Source: a virus (taxonomy: Duplodnaviria; Caudoviricetes). Taken from it: a DNA stretch of 64,000 nucleotides. This document shows, piece after piece, positions 3,295 to 64,000 of the stretch. Within the stretch, counting starts at the first letter, position 1. Every line of letters starts with the position of its first letter. The DNA lies in IMG/VR virus record IMGVR_UViG_3300037400_002699, positions 1-64,000 of that record. The stretch is one strand, 5' to 3'. The notes below the pieces were generated by a model, which saw nothing but the letters and a program-made list of their open reading frames with translations, did no database searches and was not told the DNA's origin. Both the position numbers and the translations under genes were made by a program.

Positions 3295-3297
3295 CAT

Positions 3298-43392: not shown

Positions 43393-43779
43393 ATGAAAAA
43401 GGTAATTAGATTAACAGAAGGTGACCTTCACAAGATTGTGAAAGAGTCGGTTAAAAAGATATTGAAGGAGTATAATTTCAATGCTGTTCGCAGTGTTGAA
43501 ACAAAGCTGAAGATGGCTGCTGCAAAAGCTCAATATGGAAGATATAATGAGGCTGCTAGAATGATAGAGGAGGCATCGGAGCTTGTTGAACAGTACAACG
43601 ACAAACTAATCCAAGCATTAGGTGAAGACGAGTATGAGCAACTAGTTAAGATACTAGATGCAATGGTTCGCCCAATGCCCGTAGACGGAAAAATTCTATT
43701 GAGGCTCATAACCAAGGCATTGGCTATCATAAAGAATGGATATAAGACAGATGATAAAATTGAATTTGGTGAAATATAA
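43393..43779 (+). CDS. Putative head-internal protein with IRLTEGDLHKIVKESVKKILKE motif
   Basis: Motif shared with 22777; TATTTATA at 43328. Confidence 0.75.
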   Translation: MKKVIRLTEGDLHKIVKESVKKILKEYNFNAVRSVETKLKMAAAKAQYGRYNEAARMIEEASELVEQYNDKLIQALGEDEYEQLVKILDAMVRPMPVDGKILLRLITKALAIIKNGYKTDDKIEFGEI

Positions 43780-45472: not shown

Positions 45473-47956
45473 TTATTTAATTTCAATCTGCTCATTTGAG
45501 CATGACGCGCTGAATACGTAGTTTGACGGATATTCGTTCGTCAACATGAGGTCTGTAATTTTATCCTCTAAGTTGGTCTGTATAAGCCTTATGATAGGTC
45601 TAGCACCGAACTCCTTGGATTTGAGGGCTTCTGCATGTATACAGGTAACAACATCATCAGTATACGTAATACTATACTCTAACGTATTAAGCCTCTTATT
45701 AAACTTATCTATTTCTAATTTAACAATATCTCTAAGATTATCATCTGATAATGAATTGAAATATACTATCTGGTCCAATCTATTAATAAACTCTGGAGTA
45801 AATTTTTTCTTTAATTCCTTATCAATAATAGATTTCTTATTAGATTCCTCACTGTTAACGAAACCAAGACCATTACCAAGCTCTGCTGCCTTCCTAGCAC
45901 CTATATTCGAGGTCATGAGGACGATAACATTCTTGAAGTTGACAATCTGTCCAGCACTGTCCGTAAGTCGTCCCTCGTCGAATAACTGAAGGAATATGTT
46001 ATAAACCTCCTGGTCTGCCTTTTCAATCTCATCAAGGAGTAATACACAGTGCTGCTTGTGCTTCACAGCCTCAGTAAGCTGCCCACCGTTCTCGTAACCT
46101 ACATATCCTGGTGCTGCTCCAGTAAGCTTTGCTACAGAGTTTTTCTCTGAGTATTCAGACATATCAATCCTTATGAGTGCCTTCTCGTCTCCGAAGATTT
46201 CCTCAGCCAGCTTCTTGGCAATGAGAGTCTTACCAGAACCAGTAGGGCCTACCATTAAGATATTAGCTAGTGTTTTCGACTTGTCACCAAGTCCTACCTT
46301 GTTTCTCTTGATAACCCTGCAAACGCTGTCAACTGCCTCGTCCTGCCCTATGATACTCTCCTTGAGAATCTTGTCGATGTTGGCAATCTTAGCCTTCTCA
46401 CTGACTGACAGCTTGCTCACTGGAATCTTGGTCATTTCAGACACAACGTCTGCAATGTTGTCCTCAGTGATTTCTATTGTATCTATCTTAAGCTTCTTAA
46501 TGTCTCTCTTATAGTCTGCCATGTCTGAAGCCAGTACGTTCTCTTCTATCGTGAGTGAGTCAATGAGTTCAAAGTCTCCGTTATTAAGTGCTGTGTATTT
46601 CTCATTCTCAATTTCTCTCATTCTCTTTTTCGTATTCTGTATTTCTACTGGTTCTCTCTCCAGGAGTGATGTACCAGCACCAGCAAGGTCTATGATATCG
46701 AATGCTGAGTCTGGAAGACACCTGTCAGTAATGTATCTGTCAGCAAGTTCAATTGCTTTCTTAATGGTTTTATCACTGTATGTAACCCTGTGGAATTCTT
46801 CATAATATCTCTTGTTGTGGTCAAGGATTGCAGTCGCCTCCTCTATCGTGTTAGGCTCAATGACAATCTTCTGTAACTTTCTTGAAATAGATGAATTACT
46901 TTCTATTGAGTTCCTGTATTCCTTAAATGTAGTAGTACCGATAATCTTCAGTTTACCTTCTGATAAGGCGTTACTAATCATACCAGATATGTCAGTGTCC
47001 TTATCCTTGCTTCCACTCTTCAATACATTCTGCATGTCGTCGATGAACAGGATATACTTGTCGGATGCTTGTAATTCAGTGAACAATCCATTGATTCTCT
47101 CCTCGAACATTCCTCTAAAGTGTGTTCCACTTACCAATGCCATGATGTTGAGCATTACAATCTCCTTACCTTCAAGCACTGATGGAACTTTACCTTCTTC
47201 AATGAGGTTTGCAAGCCCATAGACGATAGCTGTCTTTCCGCAGCCTCCACGTCCTACCAGAACTGCATTGTTCTTCTTTCTTCTGGAAAGGGTCTTAATG
47301 ATTTCCTTTATCTCATTTTCTCTCCCAATCACGTCGTCAATCTCACCGTTCTTAGCCATCTTGTTGAGGCTTGTGGTGTATTTCGTGATGAAGTCGTCAG
47401 CCAGACTTGACACTGATTTGGCATTGACCTGGCTCTTGAGAGGTATACCATTTCCCTTTGCCTTGAGACCCTTCGGAGCTTTCAACTCACCCTTCTCTTT
47501 ATTAGGAGTATCGCACTTGTTCTGTATGAACTCGTACTCAAGTCTGAACTTGTCGAACACTTCTGCGTTCTTGAATCCGTACTCCTTATTGAGAACAGCA
47601 AGCAGGATGTGTTCTGTTCCTATTTCTATATTCTTTAATTTATCTCTTTCCTTTTGGGCACACTCAAGCAATCTCACCAGCTCATCATTAAATCTGATGT
47701 CGTCCATTTTCACTTGAGGGTTCATATGCGATTCAATAGCAGACACATACACCTTCCTCAGCTCATCCAGGTTGTTTGACATAAGACAGTTGTCAAGGAT
47801 AAGGTTCGCATGACAGTTTCTAATGTCCAGCATTGATAAAATAAGGTACTCTGGTGTAAGTAAGTCCGTAGGGAATTCATGAATGAGGGTATCAGTCATA
47901 TATGACATTACCTCATTAAGTTCTAATGTGTAAGAATTATCTTTTTTTCTACTCAT
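45473..47956 (-). CDS. clpC: ClpC-like Hsp100 AAA+ ATPase
   Basis: Clp-N repeats (TPEYLIL, GTEHILL), VIGRENEI..LSRRKKNN, GCGKT, LPD.A.D..D.AG, UVR-like M domain, GPTGSGKT, DMSEY, PGYVGY, DEIEKA, LGF loop, FGARP. Confidence 0.9.
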   Translation of the reverse strand: MSRKKDNSYTLELNEVMSYMTDTLIHEFPTDLLTPEYLILSMLDIRNCHANLILDNCLMSNNLDELRKVYVSAIESHMNPQVKMDDIRFNDELVRLLECAQKERDKLKNIEIGTEHILLAVLNKEYGFKNAEVFDKFRLEYEFIQNKCDTPNKEKGELKAPKGLKAKGNGIPLKSQVNAKSVSSLADDFITKYTTSLNKMAKNGEIDDVIGRENEIKEIIKTLSRRKKNNAVLVGRGGCGKTAIVYGLANLIEEGKVPSVLEGKEIVMLNIMALVSGTHFRGMFEERINGLFTELQASDKYILFIDDMQNVLKSGSKDKDTDISGMISNALSEGKLKIIGTTTFKEYRNSIESNSSISRKLQKIVIEPNTIEEATAILDHNKRYYEEFHRVTYSDKTIKKAIELADRYITDRCLPDSAFDIIDLAGAGTSLLEREPVEIQNTKKRMREIENEKYTALNNGDFELIDSLTIEENVLASDMADYKRDIKKLKIDTIEITEDNIADVVSEMTKIPVSKLSVSEKAKIANIDKILKESIIGQDEAVDSVCRVIKRNKVGLGDKSKTLANILMVGPTGSGKTLIAKKLAEEIFGDEKALIRIDMSEYSEKNSVAKLTGAAPGYVGYENGGQLTEAVKHKQHCVLLLDEIEKADQEVYNIFLQLFDEGRLTDSAGQIVNFKNVIVLMTSNIGARKAAELGNGLGFVNSEESNKKSIIDKELKKKFTPEFINRLDQIVYFNSLSDDNLRDIVKLEIDKFNKRLNTLEYSITYTDDVVTCIHAEALKSKEFGARPIIRLIQTNLEDKITDLMLTNEYPSNYVFSASCSNEQIEIK

Positions 47957-48081
47957 AATTTTTTTTTGTTTTACATAATAAAATGTAATCATTGACGTTT
48001 AAAAAACAATAAAAAAAGTTTGTAATTTTCTTGCTTTTTTAACATTTTTTATATATCTTTGCAAAAAATAGTTAAGAGACT

Positions 48082-48576
48082 ATGAAGATTTTTAATTTCT
48101 ATTCGAACGATGTTGACAGGACGTGGTATCAGTCCTCTAACATCAAGTACAGCGAGTGCATTGACCATGACAATGACTTGAAGACGTTGATTGTGGTATT
48201 CAACAATGGCACTCAATACAGGTATGAAAAGGTGGATGTCAGAGACTATCTGCTTTTTAAGAACGATGAAAGCCAGGGAAGGGCATTGAATCAGTACATC
48301 AAAACCAAGGGTTATGCCTTTGAGAAGATGGAGAATGCCGACCTAGCTACTCTTGATGGTGAACTCAGCTTCAGAATGGAAGGTGGTGTGTTCATCGACT
48401 ACGACGGTAAAATTATCAAGATGAGGAACAACAAGGATGAGGTTGTGTTCGAGAAGGAGGTAAAGCTTAACAAGGACGCTCTCAATGTCATTTGCGGCAT
48501 CTTGGTAGCTGCTGGTAAGGATGTTAAACTAATCACTACGGAGGAATTCGACAATGGAGAAACAGGAGAAGATTAG
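48082..48576 (+). CDS. KTSC domain protein
   Basis: SSNI...L.V.FNNGT.YRY..V...Y......S.G...N.YIK; promoter TATCTTTG at 48054. Confidence 0.78.
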   Translation: MKIFNFYSNDVDRTWYQSSNIKYSECIDHDNDLKTLIVVFNNGTQYRYEKVDVRDYLLFKNDESQGRALNQYIKTKGYAFEKMENADLATLDGELSFRMEGGVFIDYDGKIIKMRNNKDEVVFEKEVKLNKDALNVICGILVAAGKDVKLITTEEFDNGETGED

Positions 48577-48865
48577 ACAGTACGAGAGGGCACTTGAAAT
48601 GTGGGGAGTGACTGCACAGTTCAAGATGTTGGTTGAAGAGATTGGAGAGTTATTTGCGGCTCTTGGAAAATTTGACAGGAGACGTGTTGAGGAAGATGAT
48701 GTCATAACTGAGATTGCTGATGCATCCATCATGGTTGAGCAAATGGCAACACTTTTTGGATATGACAGATTCGAAGCAGAGAAGGATAGAAAATTACAAA
48801 GATTAAAGGAAAGGCTAGATAAACATGACGAACAAAAGCATAAGCCAGAGGCTCAAGGAAATTGA
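48554..48865 (+). CDS. MazG-like nucleotide pyrophosphohydrolase
   Basis: EEIGEL ... EIADA motifs. Confidence 0.8.
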   Translation: MEKQEKIRQYERALEMWGVTAQFKMLVEEIGELFAALGKFDRRRVEEDDVITEIADASIMVEQMATLFGYDRFEAEKDRKLQRLKERLDKHDEQKHKPEAQGN

Positions 48866-49046
48866 TGAGGAAATATCTGCGCTCTACCAGGAGAAGCATA
48901 TGTTGGAAATGGAACAGCAGGAGTATTGGAGAAAGATGGGCTGGACAGGAACTTTCATTGCAAAGGCTGAAGACGTGCCTATAGCTTGGATGGCTGACTC
49001 AGAAGATAACTTAGATAAACTGTACGAGTATGGGAATACTTATTAG
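48825..49046 (+). CDS. Hypothetical protein
   Basis: 73 aa coiled-coil-like ORF. Confidence 0.55.
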   Translation: MTNKSISQRLKEIDEEISALYQEKHMLEMEQQEYWRKMGWTGTFIAKAEDVPIAWMADSEDNLDKLYEYGNTY

Positions 49047-49581
49047 TTCATTTCCTGGGTGTGGTAAGACTTACTTAATGAACACTCACGGAAGCAAGGC
49101 AAAGATGCTTGATGCAACAACGCTGATGGGAGGAGGACAAGATGGCGAATACAACTACAACCTGTGGGTTGACAACATAATGGATGAGGTCGATGACTAC
49201 GATATTGTCTTTGTTCCAGTTGCAGAAAGGTTGCTTGAAACATTGAATAACAGAAAGATTGACTATGATATTTTCTACCCATCAAAGGACAGGAGAAAGG
49301 AGTTCCTGGAGAATATGGTTAGGAAAAGAGCCTTGAGAAATGATATAATGATGCTTGACAGGGAGTTTGATAAAATTGTTGACAGAATAGATGCAATTGA
49401 GTCTGACAACTGTTACAAGCACAAGATGGAGGAACTTGGTCACTTCATAGGCAATGATGCTGCCATCATGCAGTATATAAATAATGTAGAGTTAAATAAT
49501 AAAAAAAATGAGCAGAAACCTAGCGAAGGAGTGGAGGAATCTCCACGAGGCAAGGAGGATAATGAGGAGGATGAAGCATGA
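49030..49581 (+). CDS. P-loop kinase-like protein
   Basis: ISSFPGCGKT Walker A. Confidence 0.7.
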   Translation: MGILISSFPGCGKTYLMNTHGSKAKMLDATTLMGGGQDGEYNYNLWVDNIMDEVDDYDIVFVPVAERLLETLNNRKIDYDIFYPSKDRRKEFLENMVRKRALRNDIMMLDREFDKIVDRIDAIESDNCYKHKMEELGHFIGNDAAIMQYINNVELNNKKNEQKPSEGVEESPRGKEDNEEDEA

Positions 49582-49663
49582 GCTTCGTGAACTCGATGGT
49601 ATGATGGCAACCGCATGGAAGGAAGTATGCCAACCAGCTAATAATTAATTAAATTAGTATTAT

Positions 49664-50779
49664 ATGAATAATGTAGACAAACAATATCTCTCATTATTAT
49701 CCGATATAATGGAAAATGGTGTTGAGAAGGATACGAGGGCTGGACGTGTCAAGTCCTTATTTGGAAAACAGCTTAGGTTCGACCTCAAGAAGGGATTTCC
49801 ACTGCTTACAACCAAGAAGGTGTTCACCAAGGGTGTTATTCATGAATTGCTGTGGTTCTTACAACGTCCGTACAATTCTCATGGAAGTATGAATATAGAG
49901 TACCTTGTGAGGAATAAGGTATATATCTGGAATGATGACGCTTATAGATGGTACAAGGAATGGATTAATAAAAACATTGTAGAACCACATGAAGTTGATT
50001 ATGAGTTTTTTGTTTGCGTTGGCGATGATGAAAGAGGTAATAAGCCTGGCTTTGAATATTGGATAGATGGTGCTAACAAGAAGGGAAACTTGGAGTGGTT
50101 AATCAATATTGACAAAGAAGAATTCATTGACCTTGTTATCCAAAAGGTTGAAATCCGTACAAACACACATTACAGTTACGTAGGTCAAAAGGTGTATAGA
50201 TTCGGTGACTTAGGACCTGTTTATGGTGCTCAATGGCGTTCATTTGGCTATAGAAGCTATAAAAAAATAGACCAGATACAGAATATCATTGACACCCTTA
50301 AGACCAATCCAAATGACAGGAGAATGCTCTGTGTGGCATATCATCCAGCATTCATCAAGGACATGGCATTGCCTCCTTGTCACGTGATGTTCCAGTTCTA
50401 CACCAGAGAGCTTACGGAGGCTGAGAAGAAAGAATATGGCGTTGACTATGGACTCAGCTGTATGTGGGTACAGCGTAGCGTTGACACGGTATTAGGACTG
50501 CCATTTAACATTGCCTCGTATGCTCTGCTAACGCATATAATAGCTAAGCAGGTCGGAATGATACCAGATGAACTTATAGGAAGTCTTGGCGACTGTCACA
50601 TATATGAAGCTCATTTTGATGCTGTTAAGGAACAGTTGTCTAGAGAAGGTAGTAAAAATTTACCAAAGCTAGAAATTGAAGGAGAACACATAATGATTGA
50701 AGACTTCAAATTTGAAGAGTTTAAAATAGTGGGTTATGAACCAGACCCACCGATTAAAGCACCATTGTTAGTAGGATAA
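49664..50779 (+). CDS. thyA: Thymidylate synthase
   Basis: FPLLTTKK, ELLWFL, LGPVYG.QWR, MALPPCH, QRSVD..LGLPFNIASY, GDCHIY; contains a large insertion. Confidence 0.95.
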   Translation: MNNVDKQYLSLLSDIMENGVEKDTRAGRVKSLFGKQLRFDLKKGFPLLTTKKVFTKGVIHELLWFLQRPYNSHGSMNIEYLVRNKVYIWNDDAYRWYKEWINKNIVEPHEVDYEFFVCVGDDERGNKPGFEYWIDGANKKGNLEWLINIDKEEFIDLVIQKVEIRTNTHYSYVGQKVYRFGDLGPVYGAQWRSFGYRSYKKIDQIQNIIDTLKTNPNDRRMLCVAYHPAFIKDMALPPCHVMFQFYTRELTEAEKKEYGVDYGLSCMWVQRSVDTVLGLPFNIASYALLTHIIAKQVGMIPDELIGSLGDCHIYEAHFDAVKEQLSREGSKNLPKLEIEGEHIMIEDFKFEEFKIVGYEPDPPIKAPLLVG

Positions 50780-51436
50780 ATGGAAAATAATAGAAAGAAA
50801 GACATGAATGTTGAACGTGAGATTGCAGCATTCCTTGACGAATATTTATATTCAAATAATGAACTATTCTCTGAATTTGCAAGAACAGATGGGAAAGATG
50901 AACAAATAAGCGGCTCAGACCTTATTTTAAGTACCTCTGACAAGAGATTATACAGAGTTGTGGTAGATGAGAAGGTTGCTGCAAGATATGCGAACACAGG
51001 ACTTGACACATTCTCTCTTGAGTTATCGTTTATTGGCAAAGGTGAAAAGAAAAGATGTGGTTGGTTTCTTGATTATTCCAAGAAAACCCAATATTATCTA
51101 CTTGGGTGGATTGTAAAGGCTGATATACAGTATGATGAACAAAAGAAGAGGTATGATACTGACAGCATTACAAAAGAGAATATAAAGGAACTTGATTGGT
51201 GTCTTGTATCAAGGGAGAAGATTGTAAAGTTTCTTGAAAAGAAGGGCTGGACTCTTGATAAATTATCAAAGCAAGACCAGAGCATAAGAGGGAGAGGATA
51301 CGTCAAGACAAAGGAGTTTGTTGATGGTATCTCCTTTAGATACAGTGATAGGTATATTGAAAAGCCAATTAATATTTTACTAAAGAAACAAACATATATT
51401 GATTTGTCTGACTATCACGGGAAAATAATGTGCTAA
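50780..51436 (+). CDS. PD-(D/E)xK nuclease-like protein
   Basis: Q..GSDLI...VDEK..., F.LELSF, GWF pattern. Confidence 0.6.
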   Translation: MENNRKKDMNVEREIAAFLDEYLYSNNELFSEFARTDGKDEQISGSDLILSTSDKRLYRVVVDEKVAARYANTGLDTFSLELSFIGKGEKKRCGWFLDYSKKTQYYLLGWIVKADIQYDEQKKRYDTDSITKENIKELDWCLVSREKIVKFLEKKGWTLDKLSKQDQSIRGRGYVKTKEFVDGISFRYSDRYIEKPINILLKKQTYIDLSDYHGKIMC

Positions 51437-51447
51437 AAAAAAATTAA

Positions 51448-51975
51448 ATGATAAATAGAAAACTTAATGAGACAGTTAGGCAATTTTATTTTACTGGACG
51501 GTTGGATGAGGATTTCGTAATGGATTCTGTTAAATATACGCTTGGCGGGGCTGTTGAAAGGTCTACTCAGTCTGAGGACAAATATGACCATATAGACTTC
51601 TGGTGGGACAGCCCAAAGAAGGGAAGGATTGGAATTGATGTCAAGGGGATAAAAAGGAACAGTAGGGGTGATGAAAAGCAAGATGACAGTATACAGTGGC
51701 TTGAGTTACAAGGAATAACAGGTAAGCCTGGGTGGTTATATGGGAAGGCTGAGTATATTGCATTCAGAACGTTCAGCAAGATAATATTTGTAAAGCGTGA
51801 AAAACTGCTTTCTTTTGCTCTAGAATGCGTTAAAGGTAAGGAGACGGTATATGACACGCCAAAGGAGTGTTACGTGCCTTACAAGCGAAAGAAATGGGGT
51901 AGGGATGACCTTTCATTCAAGGTTAATACCAGTGATTTGGAGGAAATTGCAGATTTCTGCATTGATTGTGCTTAA
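51448..51975 (+). CDS. PD-(D/E)xK nuclease-like protein
   Basis: HIDF...IGIDVKG, WLEL..G..GWLYG.A.YIAF. Confidence 0.7.
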   Translation: MINRKLNETVRQFYFTGRLDEDFVMDSVKYTLGGAVERSTQSEDKYDHIDFWWDSPKKGRIGIDVKGIKRNSRGDEKQDDSIQWLELQGITGKPGWLYGKAEYIAFRTFSKIIFVKREKLLSFALECVKGKETVYDTPKECYVPYKRKKWGRDDLSFKVNTSDLEEIADFCIDCA

Positions 51976-52028
51976 GATACTTGTACGCAAGTGTAGCTGT
52001 AATTAAGGTACTGAGAGGTCAGTACCTT

Positions 52029-52739
52029 TTATTTTGGAATTCTATTAAGTTTCCATATGGACGTTTGTATGTAATCAAACGCTAAATATATTGGATTTTT
52101 CATGAACCTATCATCAGAATCTACAACTTCATCACGAGTCTTTTTCATTTCTTTTTCAAGAGTTTCTACGTTAAGTTTTCCTGTGAATCTATTCTTAGAG
52201 TACAGCCAAACTAGCATATCATTAATATCATCAAGTCTACCTATACTCCAAAGAGCCAAAGGTTTAAGCTGTCCGTTAAGATACTTATCAAAGAATCCTT
52301 TGTCAATAAGGTCTGCAACAGCCTTTTTACAGTCCCTATTTGTCTCATAGTTATTTCTTTCCTGTTCTATAAGCATATAATCGTATAATTCTTCAAGTGA
52401 CATATTCTTAAACTGTGGCTTTATTTTTTTTTCAACATATTCAACCTGCTTTTTTGAGAATGGTATATTACCTATTGAATGATATATCTTGTAATCATCA
52501 AATTCTGGAAGTTTCTCGCCATTATCAATCATCTTAATTGTTTTTGCAAATGCTATCTGATGTATAATTTTGTCTTTATTACCATTATATCTGCTTTGGT
52601 AGTAGGGGTAAAACAGCCATCTAGCTTTATTCATCTTGTCATTTGTGACGAAAAAATCACCATCCTGGTAAAAATTATTATTTCCAGGATTACCAAATAG
52701 TGATACAAACTTGGCTTTTGTTATTTTTACTCTTTTCAT
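52029..52739 (-). CDS. Hypothetical late protein
   Basis: 236 aa; minus-strand TATTTATA at 52754-52761. Confidence 0.7.
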   Translation of the reverse strand: MKRVKITKAKFVSLFGNPGNNNFYQDGDFFVTNDKMNKARWLFYPYYQSRYNGNKDKIIHQIAFAKTIKMIDNGEKLPEFDDYKIYHSIGNIPFSKKQVEYVEKKIKPQFKNMSLEELYDYMLIEQERNNYETNRDCKKAVADLIDKGFFDKYLNGQLKPLALWSIGRLDDINDMLVWLYSKNRFTGKLNVETLEKEMKKTRDEVVDSDDRFMKNPIYLAFDYIQTSIWKLNRIPK

Positions 52740-52753
52740 CTGCCTTTTTTTGT

Positions 52754-52772
52754 TATAAATAGAGTATTTATA
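52754..52772. promoter_or_regulatory. Back-to-back divergent late promoter pair
   Basis: TATAAATA-gag-TATTTATA between divergent genes 52739(-) and 52803(+). Confidence 0.6.
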
Positions 52773-52802
52773 GAGAAATAACTTTATAAATTACATTTTG
52801 AT

Positions 52803-53141
52803 ATGAAGAGTAATATATTAGACTACATGTACGAGGGTTATGGCTATGATATGGATAACCAGCTCCTTTATGTTGACGTTGAGAATTACGAAGAGGCTCT
52901 TACAGAGGTGTCAAAGATGTCAACCGCTGGAATGGAGACCCTTACACACCAGGGTATCGTAGGTCACGAGCCACAGCTTAAGGTTGAGGATGCTAGGAAG
53001 TACTCAGAAGTTGGACAGTTCATTTCTGAGAATGGTGCTAACTACACAGACCTTAGACAGGGTGTTTGTGCTTGCAACGCTAACGGTTCTACCAACCCAA
53101 GTCCAGTTGAGCCAGAGGATGGTGGAGAGAATGGTAATTAA
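52803..53141 (+). CDS. Acidic hypothetical late protein
   Basis: 112 aa, highly biased codons. Confidence 0.7.
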   Translation: MKSNILDYMYEGYGYDMDNQLLYVDVENYEEALTEVSKMSTAGMETLTHQGIVGHEPQLKVEDARKYSEVGQFISENGANYTDLRQGVCACNANGSTNPSPVEPEDGGENGN

Positions 53142-53162
53142 TTAGATTTCATATTGTTTTGA

Positions 53163-56100
53163 ATGGGAAAGACTATTAGATTTAACGAGAATGGTTTAAT
53201 AGCAATTAAGGGCAAATTAAACGAAATTATGGTTGGCACTGATGGTGTCAGCCATAATGACGTTTATGGTAATGTTAAGCTATATCATGGCACTACCATC
53301 GATGCATTACTTATGATTATGGAAAGTGGTGTGATGTCAGCGAAGCGTGGAAAACAGCATGGGGAAACATATGGTGTTAATTGGTTCTCGTTGAAGAATG
53401 GTGATAATTTTAATAAGGGGGTATTATTTTCCATTGAAGTCCCAGGGGATGTCTTTAATGAGAGATTTAGGATGATGAATAGCTCTGAGGCAGTATCAAA
53501 GGATGATGACCTGGATATAACTGGTTTTAACCTAACTATTGAAAAGATATGCGGCTTATCAAGAGGGGCTATAAAAAATGCATATGACAGATATGTAAGT
53601 AATGGTGATAGATATCCATTGGAGAGCATTGGATATTTATTTGACCATTTTATTGAAAAAGTGCAAGACGATGACGTTTTGTTCCCTAGCATCTTATATC
53701 ATAATTGGGATAAATATTATCCAATGATTATGAAGAATATACTTGGAAATAATATTAATGAGAGTGTTGCAAAAGAGTTTGCTCCAGTTACTAGTATTGG
53801 TATGGAAAAAGGTGGCGGACCTGGGTTATATGCCCATAAAAAGGAAGTTGATGAAGAAATTGACTTTGATGATAATGGCATGTCAATCAATGACGATAAA
53901 ATACTTGGAAAATACAATCTCAAAGACTTGATACTGTCAAAAACTGGTAACTACGTAACTCTTAACAAAATAGTTGCTAATGAACTTGGTAAGGGGTGTG
54001 GTAGTAAATTTATGGAAGAACTTGCTAGAATTGCCGATAAAAATGGTTGGATTCTAGTTCTTACTCCAGACACTGCATTTGGCGGTTCTTCTGTTTCAAG
54101 GTTGAAGAATTTCTACAAACGATTTGGGTTTGTTCCAAATAAGGGGAAAAATACTGATTTTAACACCAGGGAATCTATGATAAGAAAACCATTAAACGAA
54201 AATAAGTATGATGATTTGTTTGATATACGTAATACAAATAAAAAGATATCAGACTGTGAAGAAGCTATTTCATATTTCAAAAATGTTTCTGATGAGATAA
54301 GGGAGAAAAAGGAGCACATATCTAGTAAATATGGGTGTAAAAGTATGTTTTTTATTGCTAGTATTAATCAAGGGGTAATACAGGCGAACCAGAATGATGT
54401 TAATGAATTTCATAGATTGAGTGACGAAAGGAGAGAAATAGAAGAAAAAATAAAAACTCTCAAAGATTTAATTAAAGAGATAGAGAAGGAAGAAAAAAGG
54501 GAAAAAGAAGCACAAAAGTATCGTTTAGAACAAGAAGAGAATGATAGAATATTTTCTTTAGTAATTGATGAATATGGAACAACAAATAGAATAGAAAATG
54601 CTGAGTATATACTTCCAGACGGAACTATGCTATATTCTGGAGGAGACCATAGAGGTATTGCTAGTATTTATGCTACGAATAATATTAGTATTTTTGATGA
54701 TAAATATCGCTACAATTATGTTGTAGATTTTTTGAATCGTGGCGCAATTAGGTGTCGTATGTTTGACGGGGATGGTATTCTAGATATGACAAGAGAGCCA
54801 ACAGGCAAGCAATACCAAGTTATTAATACATTTGCCCGTTATGCAAGTAATATTAATATAGATTTCACTAGCAATGAAGGAGAAACATTGAATTCAGTAT
54901 CATATTCCAATGCAACGCCACAGAGAATTACTAGCGATATATACAAGTACTATAACGAAGGTATTATACCGCAAGAAAATTCACGATTTGAATCAAAGAA
55001 AAGCAAAAGTATCGTAATATCAGAAAATAAACTTGACGTTATAAAAGAAAATATTGAATCAGAGGTTGAATCGTCAGAGGTTGACCTTTCTTCGTTCAAG
55101 AAACGTGATACACTACCACCAAAGATATGGAAGGATGAAGAGACACTTAACTCAAAGGTTAGATTGAAACTTCTTGACATTGCAGATGACTTCTGGAAGT
55201 TCGTTAACCTTACCTGGGTTGAACCAAAGGGAATTATTATAACTGGCTCTATATGCAACTTCAACTGGTCTAAGTTCTCAGATATAGACCTACACCTAGT
55301 GGTTGACTTTAATGAGATTGACAGCAAAACTGAATTTGTTAAACAATATCTCGATTCGAAGAAGAACGAGTGGAATGCAGAGCATGAGGGATTGAAGATA
55401 ATGGGATTCCCTGTTGAGTTGTATACACAGGATGTTAGCGATAATGTTGAGGCTGGTGGAATATATGACCTGGAGGAGAATGCGTGGATTAGGAAACCTA
55501 ACCCACACACCATTAAGAGCATAGGCCTTGAGAAGTTTGACATCAAGCGCAAGGCGGCTGAGATAATGACAATCATTGATGAAATGTACAAGACATTATC
55601 ATCGACTGATGACGGATATGAAGTAAGTAAGATTGGTGAGGACGCAAGCTACCTATGGGAAAAGGTAAAGAGCTTGAGAAAGAAGAGCCTCACGAAGCGC
55701 GGAGAAAACGGTGCGGGAAATATAGTGTACAAGGTACTTAGAAGAACTGGATACCTTGATAAACTATTTAAATTATTCTCAGCAACATATGATAAGTCAA
55801 ATTCAATAACTGAGGGCGTACAATATGACAGACTTCGCAATGACCAGGTGTTCAGATACCGTGTCATAGCTGATATGGTTAAAGATGGATATGTATTTCA
55901 TGGTACTGGTGAAGACGGAAACGGAGTTGAATGGGATGCTGTTGACCCATCTAAAATAAAGGGTGGCAGCAGAGGAACGTATGGTTATGGTATATACTTT
56001 TCAGACCATGCATATAAGTGTGAGAAATATGCTGGCTACAGTGGTGGGCATTTCATAATAGCAAACATAAAAGGTTTTAACCTCATTAATTTGAGAGACA

Positions 56101-57938
56101 AAATCGATAAGGAAAATAATATCTTTGTTGATAAACAAGTAGAATATCATCGTTTGTGCGATGCATTGGATAATGCTAGAAACAACAGAGAGTATGACAT
56201 GATATTAGCCAAGATAGATGAATATAAGGAAACTGTTGACAAGGAGTTGCTGTATGAAATCACTAGAATCATCGACAAATCTGATGGCGATATTACCTAT
56301 GGGTATCTTAATGAGAACATACCATTGTTGTGGTATATGGAAGGTGATAGCAGAAAAAGGGTTTCAAACTTATATCTTTCTTTAGGCATTGATGGATTTG
56401 CTGTAGACACTGAATTTGTGATATTCAATTTCGATAAACTTAATAACGCCATTGTTAAAAATAAGGAAGAATTGATTTTACAATATGTACAGAAGGCTGG
56501 ATTATCAGAATCTGCCAAGCAATACCTCAAGGTTCTGAAGGAGGAATTTGCAATGGATGGTTCGTCTGAAGGAAACCCTTACGAGAAGAGGTGGAAGGCA
56601 GAGCGTGATGCATTAAAAAACTTTGTTGCCAATTATGGTAAACTGATGCAGTCGAAGGAAGACAATAAGATGGGAAGACTGTACAAGGTCTATTATGACG
56701 AAACGATGTCAAATCTCATAGGATATAACTACTGCATCTGTGTGCAGTGGGATGAATTAACAATGAAACCTAAGAGTACAGTATATATTAGGGCGTTGGA
56801 TAAATTCACTCCATTTATAAGGAGAAATTTGCAATATGATGATAGAGGGTTAGATAACCAAAGAGGTACTTATGATGATAACAGATTTGTTAGAGAATCA
56901 GTAGATGAATTGAATTTATATCATTCTAGCTATAGTAGTTTCGATAAGTTCAATCATAGGAAATATCTAAGTTCTGGTGCTGGTTCTCAAACCTTTGGGT
57001 GGGGAACTTATCTTACAGATTCATATCCTATAGCAAAAGACTATGCTGAAAAGTTTATATTATTGAAATTTAATGAATTTATTGTTAAGGCAGAACCAGA
57101 GAAGTACATTGAAAATAATGGGTCATATGACGAAGAACTAATTAAAGAAGCTGCTAAAACATATAAACAAATAGTAAGATTCAATATTTCATTTAATCCA
57201 GATAAAAGATGGAGTAAAAATTCTTTTAATTCTTCATTAAAAACTGATGAAAATGCAACTGAAAACTATGACAGTGCTTTGAAGGAATACGAACAAGCAA
57301 TACAAATGGCAAAGTCTTGGGCTGAAAATGTTCTTAAAACAGAATTTAATCTTGAAGAATTCAAAGCAAATTATTCAAAAAATAGCATTCTAAAGTTTTC
57401 TAAACAAGAATATATTAATAACGTCAATAGACAAAATGCAATATATCAATTAGTAAAAGAAATGATAAATAATATATGGGATGATGCTGATAAGCACGTT
57501 AGAAAAGAATCCTATATATATGAAGTAGAGACACCAGATGATAATGGCTTAAATTATATTGATTTAAATAATGAAGTTCCAAATGAAATCATAGAAAGCA
57601 TAACTAGTACTCTTTCTAAAATATCAAGAAGATATGGAGGTGAATGGAAAACAATGAGTAAGTGGCGTGAATTCTTATCTTATTGTAATAACGCTCCCAA
57701 AGGAGAAGATATACATGATGAGCTTGGAAAACTAGTAGGAGTAGAAACTTCTATTGGTAATTATGATAAAGCCATATCATTATTCTTACTACAGTGCGGA
57801 ATTGATGGATTCAAATATAAAGCTGGAACTATTTATGGCTTACCAGATGGAGCAGATGAAAATTCTACAAATTATGTTATTTTTGATGCTAATAAAGTAA
57901 GAATCGTTAGTAAGAACCTATTTACTGATACTTTTTAG
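53163..57938 (+). CDS. Polyvalent multi-enzyme protein (ART-like, GNAT, pol-beta nucleotidyltransferase, two ART-PolyVal-like domains)
   Basis: LYHGT..; GKGCGS..M..L...AD..LKNFYKRFGF; ITGSICNFNWSKFSDIDLH; FHGT..GYGIYFSD; YHSS..F.KF..GAG.Q.FGWG.Y.T...GIDG..Y...NYVIFD. Confidence 0.82.
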   Translation: MGKTIRFNENGLIAIKGKLNEIMVGTDGVSHNDVYGNVKLYHGTTIDALLMIMESGVMSAKRGKQHGETYGVNWFSLKNGDNFNKGVLFSIEVPGDVFNERFRMMNSSEAVSKDDDLDITGFNLTIEKICGLSRGAIKNAYDRYVSNGDRYPLESIGYLFDHFIEKVQDDDVLFPSILYHNWDKYYPMIMKNILGNNINESVAKEFAPVTSIGMEKGGGPGLYAHKKEVDEEIDFDDNGMSINDDKILGKYNLKDLILSKTGNYVTLNKIVANELGKGCGSKFMEELARIADKNGWILVLTPDTAFGGSSVSRLKNFYKRFGFVPNKGKNTDFNTRESMIRKPLNENKYDDLFDIRNTNKKISDCEEAISYFKNVSDEIREKKEHISSKYGCKSMFFIASINQGVIQANQNDVNEFHRLSDERREIEEKIKTLKDLIKEIEKEEKREKEAQKYRLEQEENDRIFSLVIDEYGTTNRIENAEYILPDGTMLYSGGDHRGIASIYATNNISIFDDKYRYNYVVDFLNRGAIRCRMFDGDGILDMTREPTGKQYQVINTFARYASNINIDFTSNEGETLNSVSYSNATPQRITSDIYKYYNEGIIPQENSRFESKKSKSIVISENKLDVIKENIESEVESSEVDLSSFKKRDTLPPKIWKDEETLNSKVRLKLLDIADDFWKFVNLTWVEPKGIIITGSICNFNWSKFSDIDLHLVVDFNEIDSKTEFVKQYLDSKKNEWNAEHEGLKIMGFPVELYTQDVSDNVEAGGIYDLEENAWIRKPNPHTIKSIGLEKFDIKRKAAEIMTIIDEMYKTLSSTDDGYEVSKIGEDASYLWEKVKSLRKKSLTKRGENGAGNIVYKVLRRTGYLDKLFKLFSATYDKSNSITEGVQYDRLRNDQVFRYRVIADMVKDGYVFHGTGEDGNGVEWDAVDPSKIKGGSRGTYGYGIYFSDHAYKCEKYAGYSGGHFIIANIKGFNLINLRDKIDKENNIFVDKQVEYHRLCDALDNARNNREYDMILAKIDEYKETVDKELLYEITRIIDKSDGDITYGYLNENIPLLWYMEGDSRKRVSNLYLSLGIDGFAVDTEFVIFNFDKLNNAIVKNKEELILQYVQKAGLSESAKQYLKVLKEEFAMDGSSEGNPYEKRWKAERDALKNFVANYGKLMQSKEDNKMGRLYKVYYDETMSNLIGYNYCICVQWDELTMKPKSTVYIRALDKFTPFIRRNLQYDDRGLDNQRGTYDDNRFVRESVDELNLYHSSYSSFDKFNHRKYLSSGAGSQTFGWGTYLTDSYPIAKDYAEKFILLKFNEFIVKAEPEKYIENNGSYDEELIKEAAKTYKQIVRFNISFNPDKRWSKNSFNSSLKTDENATENYDSALKEYEQAIQMAKSWAENVLKTEFNLEEFKANYSKNSILKFSKQEYINNVNRQNAIYQLVKEMINNIWDDADKHVRKESYIYEVETPDDNGLNYIDLNNEVPNEIIESITSTLSKISRRYGGEWKTMSKWREFLSYCNNAPKGEDIHDELGKLVGVETSIGNYDKAISLFLLQCGIDGFKYKAGTIYGLPDGADENSTNYVIFDANKVRIVSKNLFTDTF

Positions 57939-57990
57939 AAAATTTTGATATTTATATTAAAAATAAGTTTGAAAAATTAATATATTAATT

Positions 57991-59763
57991 ATGAATAAAG
58001 TAAACACTAACGACACTCTTAACAGAATGAAGTCATTAATGAATTACGGACTTCAGACTGAGAGCAAGAAAGCACCATACAGTGCTGTTGAGTACCAGAA
58101 GGTTGGTGCTGACGGAAAGGTTTATGGTATTGTACGTGAAGGTACTAAGTATTACATAAAGACTGCTCCTAACAAGCAAAACCTTATTAAGGAAGACTTT
58201 GGCTATATTGGTGGTTTCAGAAACAGAAAAGAGAACGAGTACACCAGTTACGCTAATGCTCAGAAAAACTTTGACATGAAGATGATGTCTCTTAAGGAGG
58301 CTTATAATAACCCTACCTTCAATGTAGAGTCTTGGGACTTGAATAAGAAGGAATTGGTTGTTACTGAGGCTTCTGACAAGATGAAGGGTGAGATTCTTCG
58401 TGAGCGTCAGATTATGAAGAACGCTATGAACATCATGGAGAAGAAGACCACTAGCGAGTGTGGAATTTCTGCTGAAATCGCTGGAACACAGAAGGCTAAT
58501 ATGCCTAGTGGAAAGATTGAAACTGGTAATGCTCCAGCCCATAGTGGACCTTTTGAGGAGTGCGGTGATAAGGAACTTCCAAAGGAGATGAAAGAATCTG
58601 TTGTTAAAGAAGAAGAGGTTCTTGGTTGGAACAGAAAGAGTCCAGACTATATGGACAAGTCTCACGGAACTGAAATCGGTGACAGCGCACCATTCGACGA
58701 TGCTGAGGCACGTAACATTGATAACCAGGACAAGAAGGTAACAAAGACTGGTGAAATGAAGAACGGTGTTGTTGAGAATCACGGTGTTTCAATGCATGAC
58801 ACTGACAACCAGAACAAGCCTGGTGTAGGTGTTGGTGAAGGCCCTTCAGATGACAACAACAAACCATTCGATGCTGAGAAGGGAAAGCAGATTGACGAGG
58901 CTGTAGATGGTCTCGATACCCCTCCAATGGATGATGCAGAAGGTGGAGAAGAGCCAATGGGTGATGAGCCAATGGGTGACGAAGCTCCAATTGACGATGC
59001 TGGTGCTGAGGGTGAGCCAGTTGATACTGGAATCGGTGATGAGGCTGGACTTGACGATGAGGAAGGTCTTGACGATGTTGACCTTGATGATGAAGAAGGC
59101 CTTGACGATGATTTCGAGGATGAAGACCCATACGACGAAGAGCTTGAAAACCGTCTTGATTCACTTGAGGATAAGCTTGACATGATTATGAATAAGCTTG
59201 GCGTAGACGAGCCAGCAGTTGACGCTGACAACTACGAGGACGATGACCTATTCGGTGATGAGGACTTCGAGGATGATGACGAGTTTGGTGACGATGACTT
59301 TGAGGGTGAGGAAGGCTTCGGTGAGGATGACCTTGGTGGCACTCCAGAAGACGATGAGTTCGAGGATGAAGACGAGGATGAGTACCCAATGGAGTCAAGA
59401 CGTAGACGTGGCGTTCAGATTTTCGAGACAAGGGCATTCAAGAGAGCAATGCGTAGGAATAGACTTAATGAAGAGGGTATGACCCCATTCACTGATGCAG
59501 GTCGTGTTCCATCTGGAAATATGAACAAGCTCGATGACTTCGGAAAGCACCCAGCATATCAGAAGGTTGTTATGGATTTGCCACCAAAGGATATGAAGGA
59601 ATTCCCTGGCAACTATGACATGAACGACGATTCTGTTAAGAACGACACACCTTATGGTGAGAAGATTGGTGATGGTGCTCCATTCGACATTGACCCAGAG
59701 GCAATCGATAACGCAATTGCTGAAGCTTTTGACCGTTTAAAAAAAAAAGGTAATAGAGGATAA
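57991..59763 (+). CDS. Highly acidic putative prohead scaffold/core protein
   Basis: 590 aa, RMKSLMNY N-terminus, long D/E tract, many (I/L/V)-x-E sites; TATTTATA at 57949. Confidence 0.65.
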   Translation: MNKVNTNDTLNRMKSLMNYGLQTESKKAPYSAVEYQKVGADGKVYGIVREGTKYYIKTAPNKQNLIKEDFGYIGGFRNRKENEYTSYANAQKNFDMKMMSLKEAYNNPTFNVESWDLNKKELVVTEASDKMKGEILRERQIMKNAMNIMEKKTTSECGISAEIAGTQKANMPSGKIETGNAPAHSGPFEECGDKELPKEMKESVVKEEEVLGWNRKSPDYMDKSHGTEIGDSAPFDDAEARNIDNQDKKVTKTGEMKNGVVENHGVSMHDTDNQNKPGVGVGEGPSDDNNKPFDAEKGKQIDEAVDGLDTPPMDDAEGGEEPMGDEPMGDEAPIDDAGAEGEPVDTGIGDEAGLDDEEGLDDVDLDDEEGLDDDFEDEDPYDEELENRLDSLEDKLDMIMNKLGVDEPAVDADNYEDDDLFGDEDFEDDDEFGDDDFEGEEGFGEDDLGGTPEDDEFEDEDEDEYPMESRRRRGVQIFETRAFKRAMRRNRLNEEGMTPFTDAGRVPSGNMNKLDDFGKHPAYQKVVMDLPPKDMKEFPGNYDMNDDSVKNDTPYGEKIGDGAPFDIDPEAIDNAIAEAFDRLKKKGNRG

Positions 59764-60322
59764 AGAGCCTAACAAACCACCTAAGTATTTGGATATAGAA
59801 GACGAAATAGGTGGAGATATTAAAAATAATCTAAACAGTGACCCACTAGAAGGTGGTATTGATGGGGTGGATAATTTAGACACATCATTGTCTTCAGTGG
59901 ACACTGGATTAGGTGGCGACGTTACACAGACAGATAATCTTGGCGGTGATATGTCTGGAGACATGACTGGAATGGCAGGCGACCCAAATGCACTTAGTGC
60001 AGGAGGAAACCCAGAGGTACAGCAGTTTGTCCAGGACTTCCAGAATTCTGACCCAGAGACACAGAATAGTACCATGAAGTACTTTGATAGTCAGAAAAAG
60101 GATGGCGGCACTGACCAACCAGCTGATGCAGCAATGCCACCATCACCAGGAGCAATGCCAGAGTCAAAGTTCAACTTCAAGAGAATAATTGATGAGACTT
60201 TCTCAGCAATTTTCGGTGATGGAAACCAAAGCAACTTTGAAAGAGGGACGACTGACAGACCTCAGACAGTAGTAGGTGAGGATGCTTTAACACAGTTAGA
60301 CAATCCATATTTACCAAGATAA
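59741..60322 (+). CDS. Acidic ORF, probable frameshift extension of 57991 gene
   Basis: Frame open from 59741, no ATG near its 5' end, +1 relative to upstream gene at an A10 run. Confidence 0.55.
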   Translation, partial: KKKVIEDKEPNKPPKYLDIEDEIGGDIKNNLNSDPLEGGIDGVDNLDTSLSSVDTGLGGDVTQTDNLGGDMSGDMTGMAGDPNALSAGGNPEVQQFVQDFQNSDPETQNSTMKYFDSQKKDGGTDQPADAAMPPSPGAMPESKFNFKRIIDETFSAIFGDGNQSNFERGTTDRPQTVVGEDALTQLDNPYLPR

Positions 60323-60326
60323 CATA

Positions 60327-60356
60327 AAGGGGATACCAACGGGGTATCCCTTTTTT
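60327..60356 (+). terminator. Intrinsic terminator
   Basis: GGGATACC-aacgg-GGTATCCC + T-tract. Confidence 0.75.
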
Positions 60357-60389
60357 GTTTGCAATGATATTTATATTAAAATTAATCTT

Positions 60390-60887
60390 ATGAAAGTATA
60401 CGTTAAGAAAGATAAGGTATTGAAGCTTCTTGGAGAAGGTAAGGTGTTCTCAAAGAAGGATTTAATTTTAAGAGAATTTGGTGGAGACACTAATAGCAGT
60501 GATGACGACACTGTTTCAATAAACCTATCACCAGATAATACCAATAAAAACCCATCACAGTTATCACAAAACGCAATAACTGCAAGAAATACAGTAACAG
60601 CACCTGGTAAAAAAATTGTCGGAAATGTTCCTGTTGAAGATGTCAATGGTGTTACTGCTCCAACATTATCACAGAATGACCCTGGTAACGATATGACAAT
60701 TGACTCATCAGATAATACCAGCACAGGCATAAAGAATGCAGCAGTTGCTGCTTCTAAGGCTAGGGTTGGTTCTGTTACAGTTCCAATTAAGGATTCTGTA
60801 AAGTCAAAGAAGGTTATGGATGAAATGAGAGCCAATTCAATACCATTTACAAAGTCAGAGTTAACAAAGTTTCTAAAGAGTCTTTAA
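60390..60887 (+). CDS. Hypothetical late protein
   Basis: 165 aa; TATTTATA at 60368. Confidence 0.7.
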   Translation: MKVYVKKDKVLKLLGEGKVFSKKDLILREFGGDTNSSDDDTVSINLSPDNTNKNPSQLSQNAITARNTVTAPGKKIVGNVPVEDVNGVTAPTLSQNDPGNDMTIDSSDNTSTGIKNAAVAASKARVGSVTVPIKDSVKSKKVMDEMRANSIPFTKSELTKFLKSL

Positions 60888-63800
60888 TGAAAAAGATATA
60901 CATCAACGAAAGTCAAATTAATAAGGAACTACTGCTTCCAAAGTTCCTCTTTGATGCAGTGGTTAAACATGAGACCTCCCTTGGGGATAATCCAGCATTC
61001 CCAGAGGAGGATGACTACCCGTTTGACTATACTGTTCTGAAAGAGGGGTTCAAGGATGTATGCGAACAGATGAAGGATGTTGGTATACCTATAACTAGCA
61101 CTGATGATATGGTATCAGAACTTGGTGCTATGGTCAATATGGCGAAGGAGCTGGAAAAGCCTGTAAGGGATTCACTTACAAAGATTTGCGAGAATGCAAT
61201 CAACAGGCTGTTTGCAATACCAGAGGGTGCTGTAAACATAAGATGCAGGCTTGTTGACAAGGTTACATATGGTAGCTCAATAGGAGTTACTCCAGAGATT
61301 TCCACCGACAGAAAGTTTAGATTTAAGGATATAAAGGACTTTGGTTTATCAAAGGCTGCAATTGCCAAGAGAAGACTTATTAATTCCCTTATTATGGGTG
61401 CTTCGGACTTTTACATGTCAATGATTACGTTGTACCAGGAAGACATTAATAAGCTTAATCCAGAACTTCTCGGACTGTATGACAAAATAATAACGCTTAA
61501 CAGGTATCTTACATTTGTCCTTGATGAAGAACTAAGTGATGAGAAGCCAAAGCAGGGGTCATTTGTGGAAGTACATGTTGGAAGTAACGGTAAGAAGAAT
61601 ACAATAGATGCACAGGGTGTCATATTCCCATTGCTATTCCATGACTTAATTAAGGGATTCTTCGAGCTATTTTCAGTTCATGGTTTGCCTCTTGATGGCG
61701 AGAAGGCTAAATATATAATCGGAAAGTCTGATTTCCTTCTTGCTGAGCCTTGGGATATGAGGTTTGGAACAAAGTTATGGCAGCTTATCTTTGATAGGCT
61801 GGAACTTGCTGAGGATACAAATATTGTACCTTATGTTTTTATGGAACTCGTTAAGCTGCCAACTGAAGAATTTAACCCAGTTATGCAGGAGTTGTTTATG
61901 CAGACTGAGAAAGGTGATGAAATCATTGGTAAGCTTATTGAGAAGTCAAGGTATAACGATGGATACCAGAAGTTCCAGAATAGGATTAATGCCAGAAATG
62001 TAGATAGGTCGATGATTGCTGATAGCTATTTCACTGCTTCTGAACTAGATGGATACGATATTGATGGTGAGGAAGATGGAGACGTTATCCAAGAGGATAT
62101 AATCACAGAATCCCAGGAATCTAAGTCAATATCTGCCGCAAAGAAACTTGTAATGCAGAAATTTGGATATGATGAGCAAGAAGCGGACGAATTTGTTAGA
62201 ATAAAGTTAAGAAACGACATACCATCTCTAAGAGATGTAGCCGCTAAGTTTACACTTGGTGTGACAAGAATGTTTTGTGACTATGAGTTGGAAGACGCTA
62301 ATACGATAAATAGGCTAAACAGAACACTAAAAATTGTTGGTTCTGAAGCGCATATTAATGAATATGATAGAAATCTCAACGGACTGTCAGCAGATGAACT
62401 CATAGACAGATTCTCACAGGCAATGACAGATAATGTTAATGCTGAGAGGGAACAAGATTCTAAGTTTATACCTGTTAAGCCCTCTGAATATACTATAGTA
62501 AAAATAGATTCATATAAGCAAGCCACTAAATATGGTAAATATACAGACTGGTGTATCACACATTATAAAAATAATTATGATAACTATACATGTAACGGTA
62601 TAAACCAGGTGTATTTTTGTTTAAAACCTGGTTTTAATAAACTATTAAGGAAAAAAGGAAGTAACTATCCACTCGACGAATATGGTTTATCAATGATTTC
62701 TGTTATCGTGGACGAGGACGGAGGACTTGCTTATTGTACATGTCGTTGGAATCACGGTGATGAGAATGATGGCTCATGTGATGACAGTGTTATGGACTAT
62801 AACGGCATTAGAGAACTGATGCAGGTTAGGTTCTTTGACACCTTTAAACCAAATAATAAGTGGAAGGAGTTTATTAGTTCGACGATGGAACGCCTTGCAC
62901 GAGGAGAAAACCCAGCAGACGTATTTGATTATTATGCTTATACAAATCTAGGATTTAGTGTAGTAGGTTTCGAAGAACTGGAGAGATATAATGTTATTGA
63001 TAAAGAAAACAATTTCATATCTGATAAATGGTATGTTTCCATTAAGCTTAACAATATTGGTGTTTTCATTGTTGAAGATAGTTCATATAAAAAGAGTTAT
63101 ATGGATTTAAATGGTAATGTAATATCAGAGAAATATAACGATATTGAAATTGACACTTATGACGGTTTGGCTATTGTTAGGAGAGATAGAAAATATAATT
63201 GGATTAAGCCGAATGGTGAAAGATTAAATAATGATTGGTATAATTGGGTCGGTAATTTTAAATACGGCCCAGCTCAAGTAGGTTCTGAAAAAGGAAAGAA
63301 TTTTGTTAACACCAACGGTGAATTAATGTGTAAAAGATGGTACGATGATATACACAGCATGACACTGAATAAAGATGGCACAATGGTAACGTTAGGTAAT
63401 AAAACAAATTACATTGATGCTAATGGTAATGAAATATCCAGTGAGTGGTTTGATGGAGGTTTCTATCGTTTTAACTATGGCTTTGTTGGTGTGTATAAAA
63501 ATTATGGTAACAACGTTACCCGTGCTAATTTTATTGACACTAAAGGAAATCTTTTATGTGATAAATGGTTTAAATCAATTATTAAAGATTTTAATAGAAA
63601 TGGAATTGCTGAGGTTACTGATGAACATGAAATGTTATATACAATAAACAGACGTGGAAAAATCACTAACACTGGAAAATATTATGGTGATTGGAAAGAA
63701 TATTCTGCTGACCCAGAATGTGTTAAAAAAGAAGTTAACAAGTTTGATACCCTTTTATATTACTTGATGACAGATGGGCAATGTAATTTATCATGTGCAG

Positions 63801-63901: not shown

Positions 63902-63962
63902 ACCGAAATCTATCTCTTTTTTATTTAATGTTATATTTATTAAAATTTAGAAAGTTACAATT

Positions 63963-64000
63963 ATGATATACGATAGACACGAAATGGCCGTTGAATATGC
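63963..64000 (+). CDS. 5' start of next late gene (partial)
   Basis: ATG 63963 after terminator 63893-63921 and TATTTAT at 63934. Confidence 0.45.
   Translation, partial: MIYDRHEMAVEY

Follow-up and report, generated by a model that had tools for sequence, protein, structure and literature searches.

A modular phage polyprotein with conserved prohead-protease-type sites at its joints as candidate capsid cargo of a T4-like jumbo phage

The IMG/VR virus record IMGVR_UViG_3300037400_002699 (134,273 bp), whose first 64 kb (64,000 nt) make up the window referred to throughout, carries at 53163-57938 on the plus strand an open reading frame (ORF) of 1591 codons without a stop. The 1591-aa protein encoded by this ORF is a chain of exchangeable modules, and its joints carry sites of the hydrophobic-x-Glu type cut by the T4 prohead protease gp21, with a Glu much better conserved than at look-alike sites inside the modules. 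A gp21-type protease gene and the head genes are found downstream in the same record. We think it somewhat probable (roughly 0.6) that the polyprotein is a capsid-packaged polyvalent cargo cut in trans by the prohead protease. On this best explanation, the carrier is proposed to be a T4-like jumbo phage of gut Bacteroidota with a genome of ~300 kb, a size calculated from the CheckV completeness of the record (45%), and many of the 120 homologs analyzed below are carried by contigs of 300-420 kb.

Modular organization of the polyprotein

Relatives of the polyprotein were searched among 5.8 billion proteins, with 8000 candidates scored and 198 relatives obtained, and the best 120 of the 198 were used for the homolog analyses. 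Each of these covered 16-57% of the query with varied module order, and module borders were read from the starts and ends of the high-scoring segment pairs (HSPs) that these homologs form with the query. These breakpoints divided the protein into a 34-aa leader, seven modules and a 31-aa spacer, and they agreed to ~10 residues with the borders in an earlier note on this DNA, which had claimed a 1591-aa ORF with about seven modules. The parts are as follows.

Leader: aa 1-34, 53163..53264 (+); contains KLNE21; portable, a candidate capsid-targeting propeptide.
Module A: aa 35-200, 53265..53762 (+); alpha/beta; ends INES200, from HSP borders and the junction alignment.
Spacer mini-module: aa 201-231, 53763..53855 (+); 31 aa between INE200 and VDE231.
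Module B: aa 232-346, 53856..54200 (+); GNAT acetyltransferase-like; ends LNEN346.
Module C: aa 347-629, 54201..55049 (+); helical hairpin, alpha/beta core, and a linker with ISEN621 and IKEN629.
Module D: aa 630-884, 55050..55814 (+); pol-beta-fold nucleotidyltransferase; ends ITEG884.
Module E: aa 885-1116, 55815..56510 (+); ADP-ribosyltransferase fold; ends LSES1116.
Module F: aa 1117-1245, 56511..56897 (+); small alpha/beta; first helix bears LKEE1127; ends VRES1245.
Module G: aa 1246-1591, 56898..57935 (+); ART-PolyVal/DUF3990-like; contains a helical insert; added behind module F, which is otherwise the usual C-terminal module.

In 32 homologs the leader is kept at the N-terminus, with differing modules behind it; its E21 and L19 are 100% conserved, KLNE21 likewise in 36 HSPs, and residues 17-35 have an AlphaFold predicted local distance difference test (pLDDT) score <50. 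The spacer, also with pLDDT <50, directly follows the leader in homologs without module A. At the other end, module F is C-terminal in most of the 120 homologs and in all but ~3 of 94 representative clusters (1.84 billion proteins). Module G, present in ~6 of the 120, is therefore an unusual appendage.

Whole-protein searches of Pfam returned sub-threshold matches solely, to GNAT (aa 276-324), nucleotidyltransferase (NTase; 664-755) and ART-PolyVal/DUF3990 (1250-1373) families, while PHROGs gave a strong match over aa 644-881. In tblastn against phage genomes the NTase module alone was matched (in Lak, other huge phages and cyanophages), and megablast of 48000-64000 against phage genomes gave no match. 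The nucleotidyltransferase and GNAT assignments made in the earlier note were corroborated. Module D is a pol-beta nucleotidyltransferase, in which G695, S696, D707 and D709, the GS and DxD of pol-beta NTases, are invariant in 39 sequences; CD-NTases and aminoglycoside NTases (ANT) were matched by Foldseek, with CdnE as the best (E 4.6e-4), and phrog_36119 was matched at 5e-46. Module B fits a GNAT acetyltransferase, based on a weak match to Pfam Acetyltransf_7 (E 0.021), matches to phrog_10691 and phrog_11975, a Foldseek match to 9dsb (probability 0.77) and GNAT matches in BFVD.

Modules E and G had both been labeled ART-PolyVal-like, where ART stands for ADP-ribosyltransferase. For module E the ART fold is supported by the VIA structural search, with Z 9.1 (root-mean-square deviation 3.9, 147 aligned) to 9k3a_B, chain B of the pre-ejectosome of cyanophage A4, which is a capsid-packaged ejection complex, and Z 6.1 to the catalytic domain of diphtheria toxin. 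Module G is related to module E through its N-terminus (hhalign 95.6%, E 1.2e-8) and PF18760 is precomputed on several homologs, but its own Pfam matches all fell below the cut-off (PF18760, E 0.033 and 15.4 bits versus 31.2; PF13151, E 0.016). The ART-like label of module A was dropped, as hhalign gave 3% to module E and 0.2% to module G. Module C was modeled as a long helical hairpin followed by an alpha/beta core at ~471-612, with pLDDT of 80-92 over 360-600 and <50 over 607-654. An ESM Atlas search for the fold of module F gave no usable match; Foldseek of the second AlphaFold model against the PDB returned nothing below E 0.001, and the wide VIA search with the first model was swamped by helical hairpins.

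Conserved Glu residues mark the module joints

All junction motifs listed in the earlier note exist in the polyprotein, namely KLNE21, INES200, VDEE231, LNEN346, ISEN621, IKEN629 and ITEG884, and further toward the C-terminus LSES1116, LKEE1127, VRES1245 and VDE1249. The raw number of [ILVMF]-x-E tripeptides in the chain is that of chance (37 observed versus ~35 expected); what stands out is where the motifs are placed and how well they are conserved. The median Glu conservation was 0.99 at the 11 junction sites and 0.35 at 33 internal look-alikes (Mann-Whitney p = 1.4e-5, a descriptive value given that the homologs are related), and relative to the flanking residues it was +0.37 at junctions and −0.15 internally. 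At LSES1116, for example, the Glu is 99% conserved in flanks that are merely 25% identical. A preference of the motif for junctions over the rest of the chain thus holds for placement and Glu conservation, which are non-random, and not for the raw count.

Two AlphaFold models, one of aa 1-900 (mean pLDDT 61.5) and one of aa 867-1591 (mean pLDDT 65.0), were generated from shallow alignments. All 11 junction Glu residues fell in segments with pLDDT <50 (17-35, 200-280, 345-356, 607-654, 879-900, 1114-1137 and 1222-1291), compared with 70-92 in the module cores. The motifs are therefore placed in low-confidence linkers outside the folded cores, the location for which an AlphaFold check had been suggested.

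Modules are exchanged exactly at the sites

Comparison of the homologs for shuffling, likewise suggested earlier, showed that the exact module-swap points coincide with the motifs I-x-E-[SG], x-E-S and [LI]-x-E-N. Of 103 non-redundant homologs, ~100 retain the I-x-E-[SG] end of module D, and no fewer than eight unrelated modules start immediately behind it; at least four different modules occur after the [LI]-x-E-N end of module B; module F is preceded by x-E-S in every case, regardless of the upstream module; and module A terminates in a similar site in the junction alignment. In an all-against-all comparison of the homologs, 23-25% of HSP ends lay within 3 residues of [ILVMFY]-x-E-[SGNE], versus 8% of random positions. 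Such shuffling is recent, since the closest relative (L005) is 94% identical over modules D-G and yet lacks module C, its GNAT being joined straight to module D.

Sites that coincide with exchange points can also be read in another way, which constitutes the main rival and which we judge unlikely, though it survives best among the alternatives. The polyprotein would then be packaged but merely trimmed, with the leader and perhaps a C-terminal piece removed as in T4 Alt, and would persist as one multi-enzyme chain in which the internal motifs are module end-caps or preferred joining points for module exchange. In keeping with a joining point, homologs in which module D directly joins module F hold a single motif copy common to both, and polyvalent proteins of the N4 vRNAP type are packaged unprocessed (PMC5512222). 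Against it, the codons of the joints vary synonymously (GAA/GAG; TCT/TCA/AGT), which indicates that the peptide, not the DNA, is under selection and disfavors a DNA-level recombination signal, a candidate we rejected for this reason. The near-invariant Glu within the diverged flanks of LSES1116, the location of the junction sites in low-confidence linkers and the difficulty of ejecting a folded multi-domain chain of 182 kDa also speak against trimming alone.

A gp21-type protease is encoded among the head genes

A Peptidase_S77 (PF03420) gene was found at 70568-71257 (−) of the record (86.9 bits), separate from the polyprotein gene and 12.6 kb downstream of it. Its product matched T4 gp21 (PDB 5JBL) with E 2.4e-16 and keeps the His and Ser at the positions where the inactive crystallized mutant has Ala. 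Among five related contigs bearing a polyprotein homolog, the protease was present in four, and in the fifth the polyprotein gene is at the contig end. The protease is flanked by TerL, the portal and a gp23-like major capsid protein (MCP); TerL (start 63963) and portal (65904), identified by PHROGs, lie 6-8 kb downstream of the polyprotein gene on the same strand. The MCP matched 2587 phage records, mostly T4-like, and judging from these sequences the head is of the T4 type. A gp21-type prohead protease in the same phage, with the polyprotein in the late head operon, is thus borne out.

The motif was also counted genome-wide in the form [ILVM]-x-E-[SGN]. The most enriched ORF was 71434-73038 (+) with 9 sites versus 2.3 expected, followed by a head-module ORF at 68021-68956 (6 versus 1.3), and the small leader-bearing ORFs described below ranked next. 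The top ORF, which lies beyond the window between the protease and the MCP, is a scaffold candidate: an acidic 534-aa protein with a long variable Asp/Glu-rich center. Five relatives with 61-93% identity share six of its motif sites. In the MCP all 4 sites occur within the first 52 residues; the MCPs of the related contigs, at 92-99.9% identity, are too alike to gauge the conservation of these sites. The MCP gene itself (record 73108-75144 (+), also beyond the window) encodes 678 aa and matches its nearest relatives, Flavobacterium phage immuto and Microcystis phage Mel-JY01, in two pieces, which points to a large insertion domain.

Processing by the polyprotein itself or by the host appears very improbable: a hidden peptidase in module A, C or F, the three modules without a fold assignment, or a host protease would cut the joints, as embedded peptidases were proposed for polyvalent proteins (Iyer et al., PMC5512222), but no peptidase family was found in the polyprotein in Pfam (E ≤ 1) or PHROGs, no protease domain was seen in the chain by Pfam, PHROGs, Foldseek or VIA searches, and the site type follows the T4 gp21 rule and recurs in the phage's own head proteins.

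The polyprotein gene lies in a putative late transcription unit

A sequence element, [AG]TATTTAT[AT], occurs 51 times in the record, and 29 of the occurrences stand 10-80 nt ahead of an ORF start on the same strand, compared with 2.2 expected. The 29 precede 26 ORFs, which are mostly structural and include every head gene, among them TerL, the portal, the protease, the scaffold candidate and the MCP, as well as ORF 52803; the element is a candidate late promoter by position. Two features stand directly upstream of the polyprotein gene.

Late-promoter-like motif [AG]TATTTAT[AT]: 52764..52772 (+); 39 nt upstream of ORF 52803-53141.
ORF 52803..53141 (+): 112 aa, no family matched; ends 22 nt before the polyprotein gene.

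The synteny of ORF 52803-53141 with the polyprotein gene is kept in L005, and this ORF is probably the first gene of the polyprotein transcription unit. Further positions of the element in the window are 57948, 60367 and 63933.

The head-operon context bears on a second alternative, that the polyprotein is not virion cargo but a late cytoplasmic multi-enzyme protein, with motifs that are linker or helix-cap residues and resemble protease sites by coincidence. We hold this to be quite improbable. It would suit the total motif count, which is at chance, and the commonness of E, S and N in the phage proteome. Yet the gene has TerL, the portal, the protease and the MCP as neighbors within the late head operon, the leader is conserved and portable, junction and internal Glu residues differ in conservation, and enrichment of the motif is seen both in the scaffold candidate and at the MCP N-terminus. 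Moreover, module E is matched best, by structure, to one domain of an ejection protein that is packaged in the capsid.

A model of packaging and release

Returning to capsid cargo cut in trans, we propose that the polyprotein would be synthesized late, from the promoter type common to the head genes, and that the conserved N-terminal leader, perhaps also module F, would carry it into the prohead core. The gp21-type serine protease would then cut after Glu, at hydrophobic-x-Glu followed by Ser, Gly, Asn or Glu, in the leader and at each joint. About seven proteins of 13-40 kDa and short peptides would be freed, the set comprising module A, the GNAT, module C, the nucleotidyltransferase, the ADP-ribosyltransferase, module F and the second ART-like module. 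These pieces may be small enough to exit via the tail with the DNA and could then act on host targets. As each module would have its own cut-site punctuation, modules could be gained, lost or swapped without harming the release of the others. The earlier interpretation of a packaged precursor fared well in this respect, as all in-silico tests able to refute it came out favorable; what it lost was the ART call for module A.

Several points weigh against this model. Packaging, cleavage, ejection and the enzyme targets are inferred, not observed; the known proteases of the gp21 type mainly take off terminal propeptides (PMC10052503, PMC5694885, PMC9026906); and the motif count in the polyprotein does not exceed chance. 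The refined motif was defined after the sites were seen, the relatedness of the homologs means that the p-values overstate independence, and P3 at some homolog joints is Arg or Asn rather than hydrophobic, for example in R-N-E-S. Low pLDDT at the joints suggests disorder weakly, the alignments being shallow and the model confidence modest. Finally, a strict hidden Markov model (HMM) built from the leader that six other ORFs have in common, described in the next section, did not match the polyprotein.

If the joints are cut, polyvalent effectors and T4-type prohead proteolysis would be linked in one mechanism, which would explain both how a 182-kDa multi-enzyme chain leaves through the tail tube and why the modules shuffle freely, and would provide a sequence rule to predict the injected proteome of uncultured jumbo phages. 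A broader proposition, that prohead-protease sites are the universal punctuation of capsid cargo in the T4-like jumbo gut phage lineage, is held tentatively, at a little under even chances. Were it true, any enzyme module flanked by a site on either side, within a gene that has the leader and in most cases the module F end, would be loaded, excised and injected, and one protease would serve a fast-shuffling, plug-and-play arsenal spread over several head-module genes.

Other leader-bearing ORFs and neighboring genes

A near-identical leader of ~26 aa with abundant L-T-E-S and V-K-E-S sites opens six otherwise unrelated ORFs, two in the window (22777-23208 and 43393-43779) and four at record positions 68968-69333, 69364-69681, 76019-76549 and 106032-106994. 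An internal copy was found at aa 292-317 of ORF 31607-32722 (E 1.3e-9). By analogy, the six ORFs look like cargo of the T4 internal protein (IP) type with a capsid-targeting propeptide. The reverse comparison, with an HMM of the polyprotein leader against this six-ORF class, gave N-terminal matches that were non-significant (E 0.26-1.7), and by hhalign the polyprotein leader and the other head-gene leader class showed a weak similarity (26%, P 7e-4), which leaves a shared ancestry of both leader classes unproven.

Downstream of the polyprotein gene, a head-module ORF at 60887-63901 (+) encodes 1004 aa, of which aa 1-403 are 97% identical to a 406-aa protein of L005. Beyond this counterpart, ~600 aa are appended directly after an I-T-E-S joint, and the start of the appended part resembles a module found after the NTase in some polyprotein homologs. 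From these sequences, the cut-site module grammar seems to extend to neighboring genes.

Elsewhere in the window, an 839-aa ClpB/Hsp104-like double AAA+ ATPase (phrog_4871, E 7e-204) is encoded at 45473-47992 (−), just upstream of the late genes and divergent from them. A thymidylate synthase at 49664-50779 (+) has 371 aa and matches the 266-position Pfam profile end to end, so that ~100 extra residues are present as insertions. In the early region, tRNA-Ser(UGA) and tRNA-Leu(UAA) were found at 3297-3373 (+) and 6206-6291 (+), respectively.

Comparison with known systems

In T4, gp21 cuts core and cargo proteins; among its substrates is the packaged ART Alt, with trimming at ITE-6 and LTE-619 (PMC5694885), tripeptides of the same type as the polyprotein joints. 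Alt and IPI-III share with the present case the T4-type head, the gp21-family protease and an N-terminal propeptide ending in hydrophobic-x-Glu, and Alt is likewise an ADP-ribosyltransferase cargo. However, T4 cargo consists of single enzymes trimmed at their ends, whereas here seven modules form one chain with each bounded by sites. A 10-residue capsid-targeting sequence (CTS) is enough for foreign proteins to be loaded into T4 heads (PMC9026906). Should the joints be cut, the leader and cut-site grammar could serve in a similar way for bringing foreign proteins into capsids.

The jumbo phages phiKZ, 201phi2-1 and SPN3US (protease gp175/gp245) also have heads with many internal proteins and a T4-related protease cutting after Glu; SPN3US gp245 cuts after A-x-E, prefers Ser at P1′ and makes several cuts per substrate (PMC10052503). 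Their motif is small-residue-x-Glu (A/S/G at P3), unlike the hydrophobic P3 found here, their multiple cuts break up propeptides for removal rather than separating enzymes, and they belong to a different lineage. DarA and DdrB of P1, head-packaged anti-restriction proteins that are processed before or during packaging (PMC5512222), can be likened to the polyprotein in their host-takeover role, but each is a single protein that receives one maturation cut and lacks modular punctuation.

The closest precedent in concept comes from polyvalent proteins, large multidomain proteins of phages and conjugative elements with 2-15 domains (Iyer, Burroughs, Anand, de Souza, Aravind 2017; PMC5512222), whose packaging and domain release by embedded peptidases were predicted in the same work. 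They likewise combine ART, nucleotidyltransferase and other conflict-type enzyme domains in one large phage protein, and likewise show heavy shuffling, a portal/terminase context and predicted packaging and delivery with the DNA. Their release is assigned to a zincin-like MPTase or a C-terminal assemblin-like peptidase, neither of which was detected here by Pfam or PHROGs, and an embedded peptidase domain is present in about one third of them and is not obligatory (PMC5512222). In the present family, by contrast, each joint has a conserved site that fits a separately encoded gp21-type protease, and the N-terminal leader and the C-terminal module F are fixed.

The earlier note had also claimed a viral-style polyprotein strategy in a phage, a concept already contained in Iyer et al. 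2017, where the analogy with RNA-virus polyproteins was drawn for polyvalent proteins (PMC5512222). In our literature search, prohead-protease sites at polyvalent-protein joints were not found described, with Iyer et al. 2017 as the sole match for polyvalent proteins. RNA-virus polyproteins encode their protease within the chain, whereas the candidate protease here is a separate gene 12.6 kb downstream, and the new element is the proposed in-trans cutting by a prohead protease at a conserved site at each joint.

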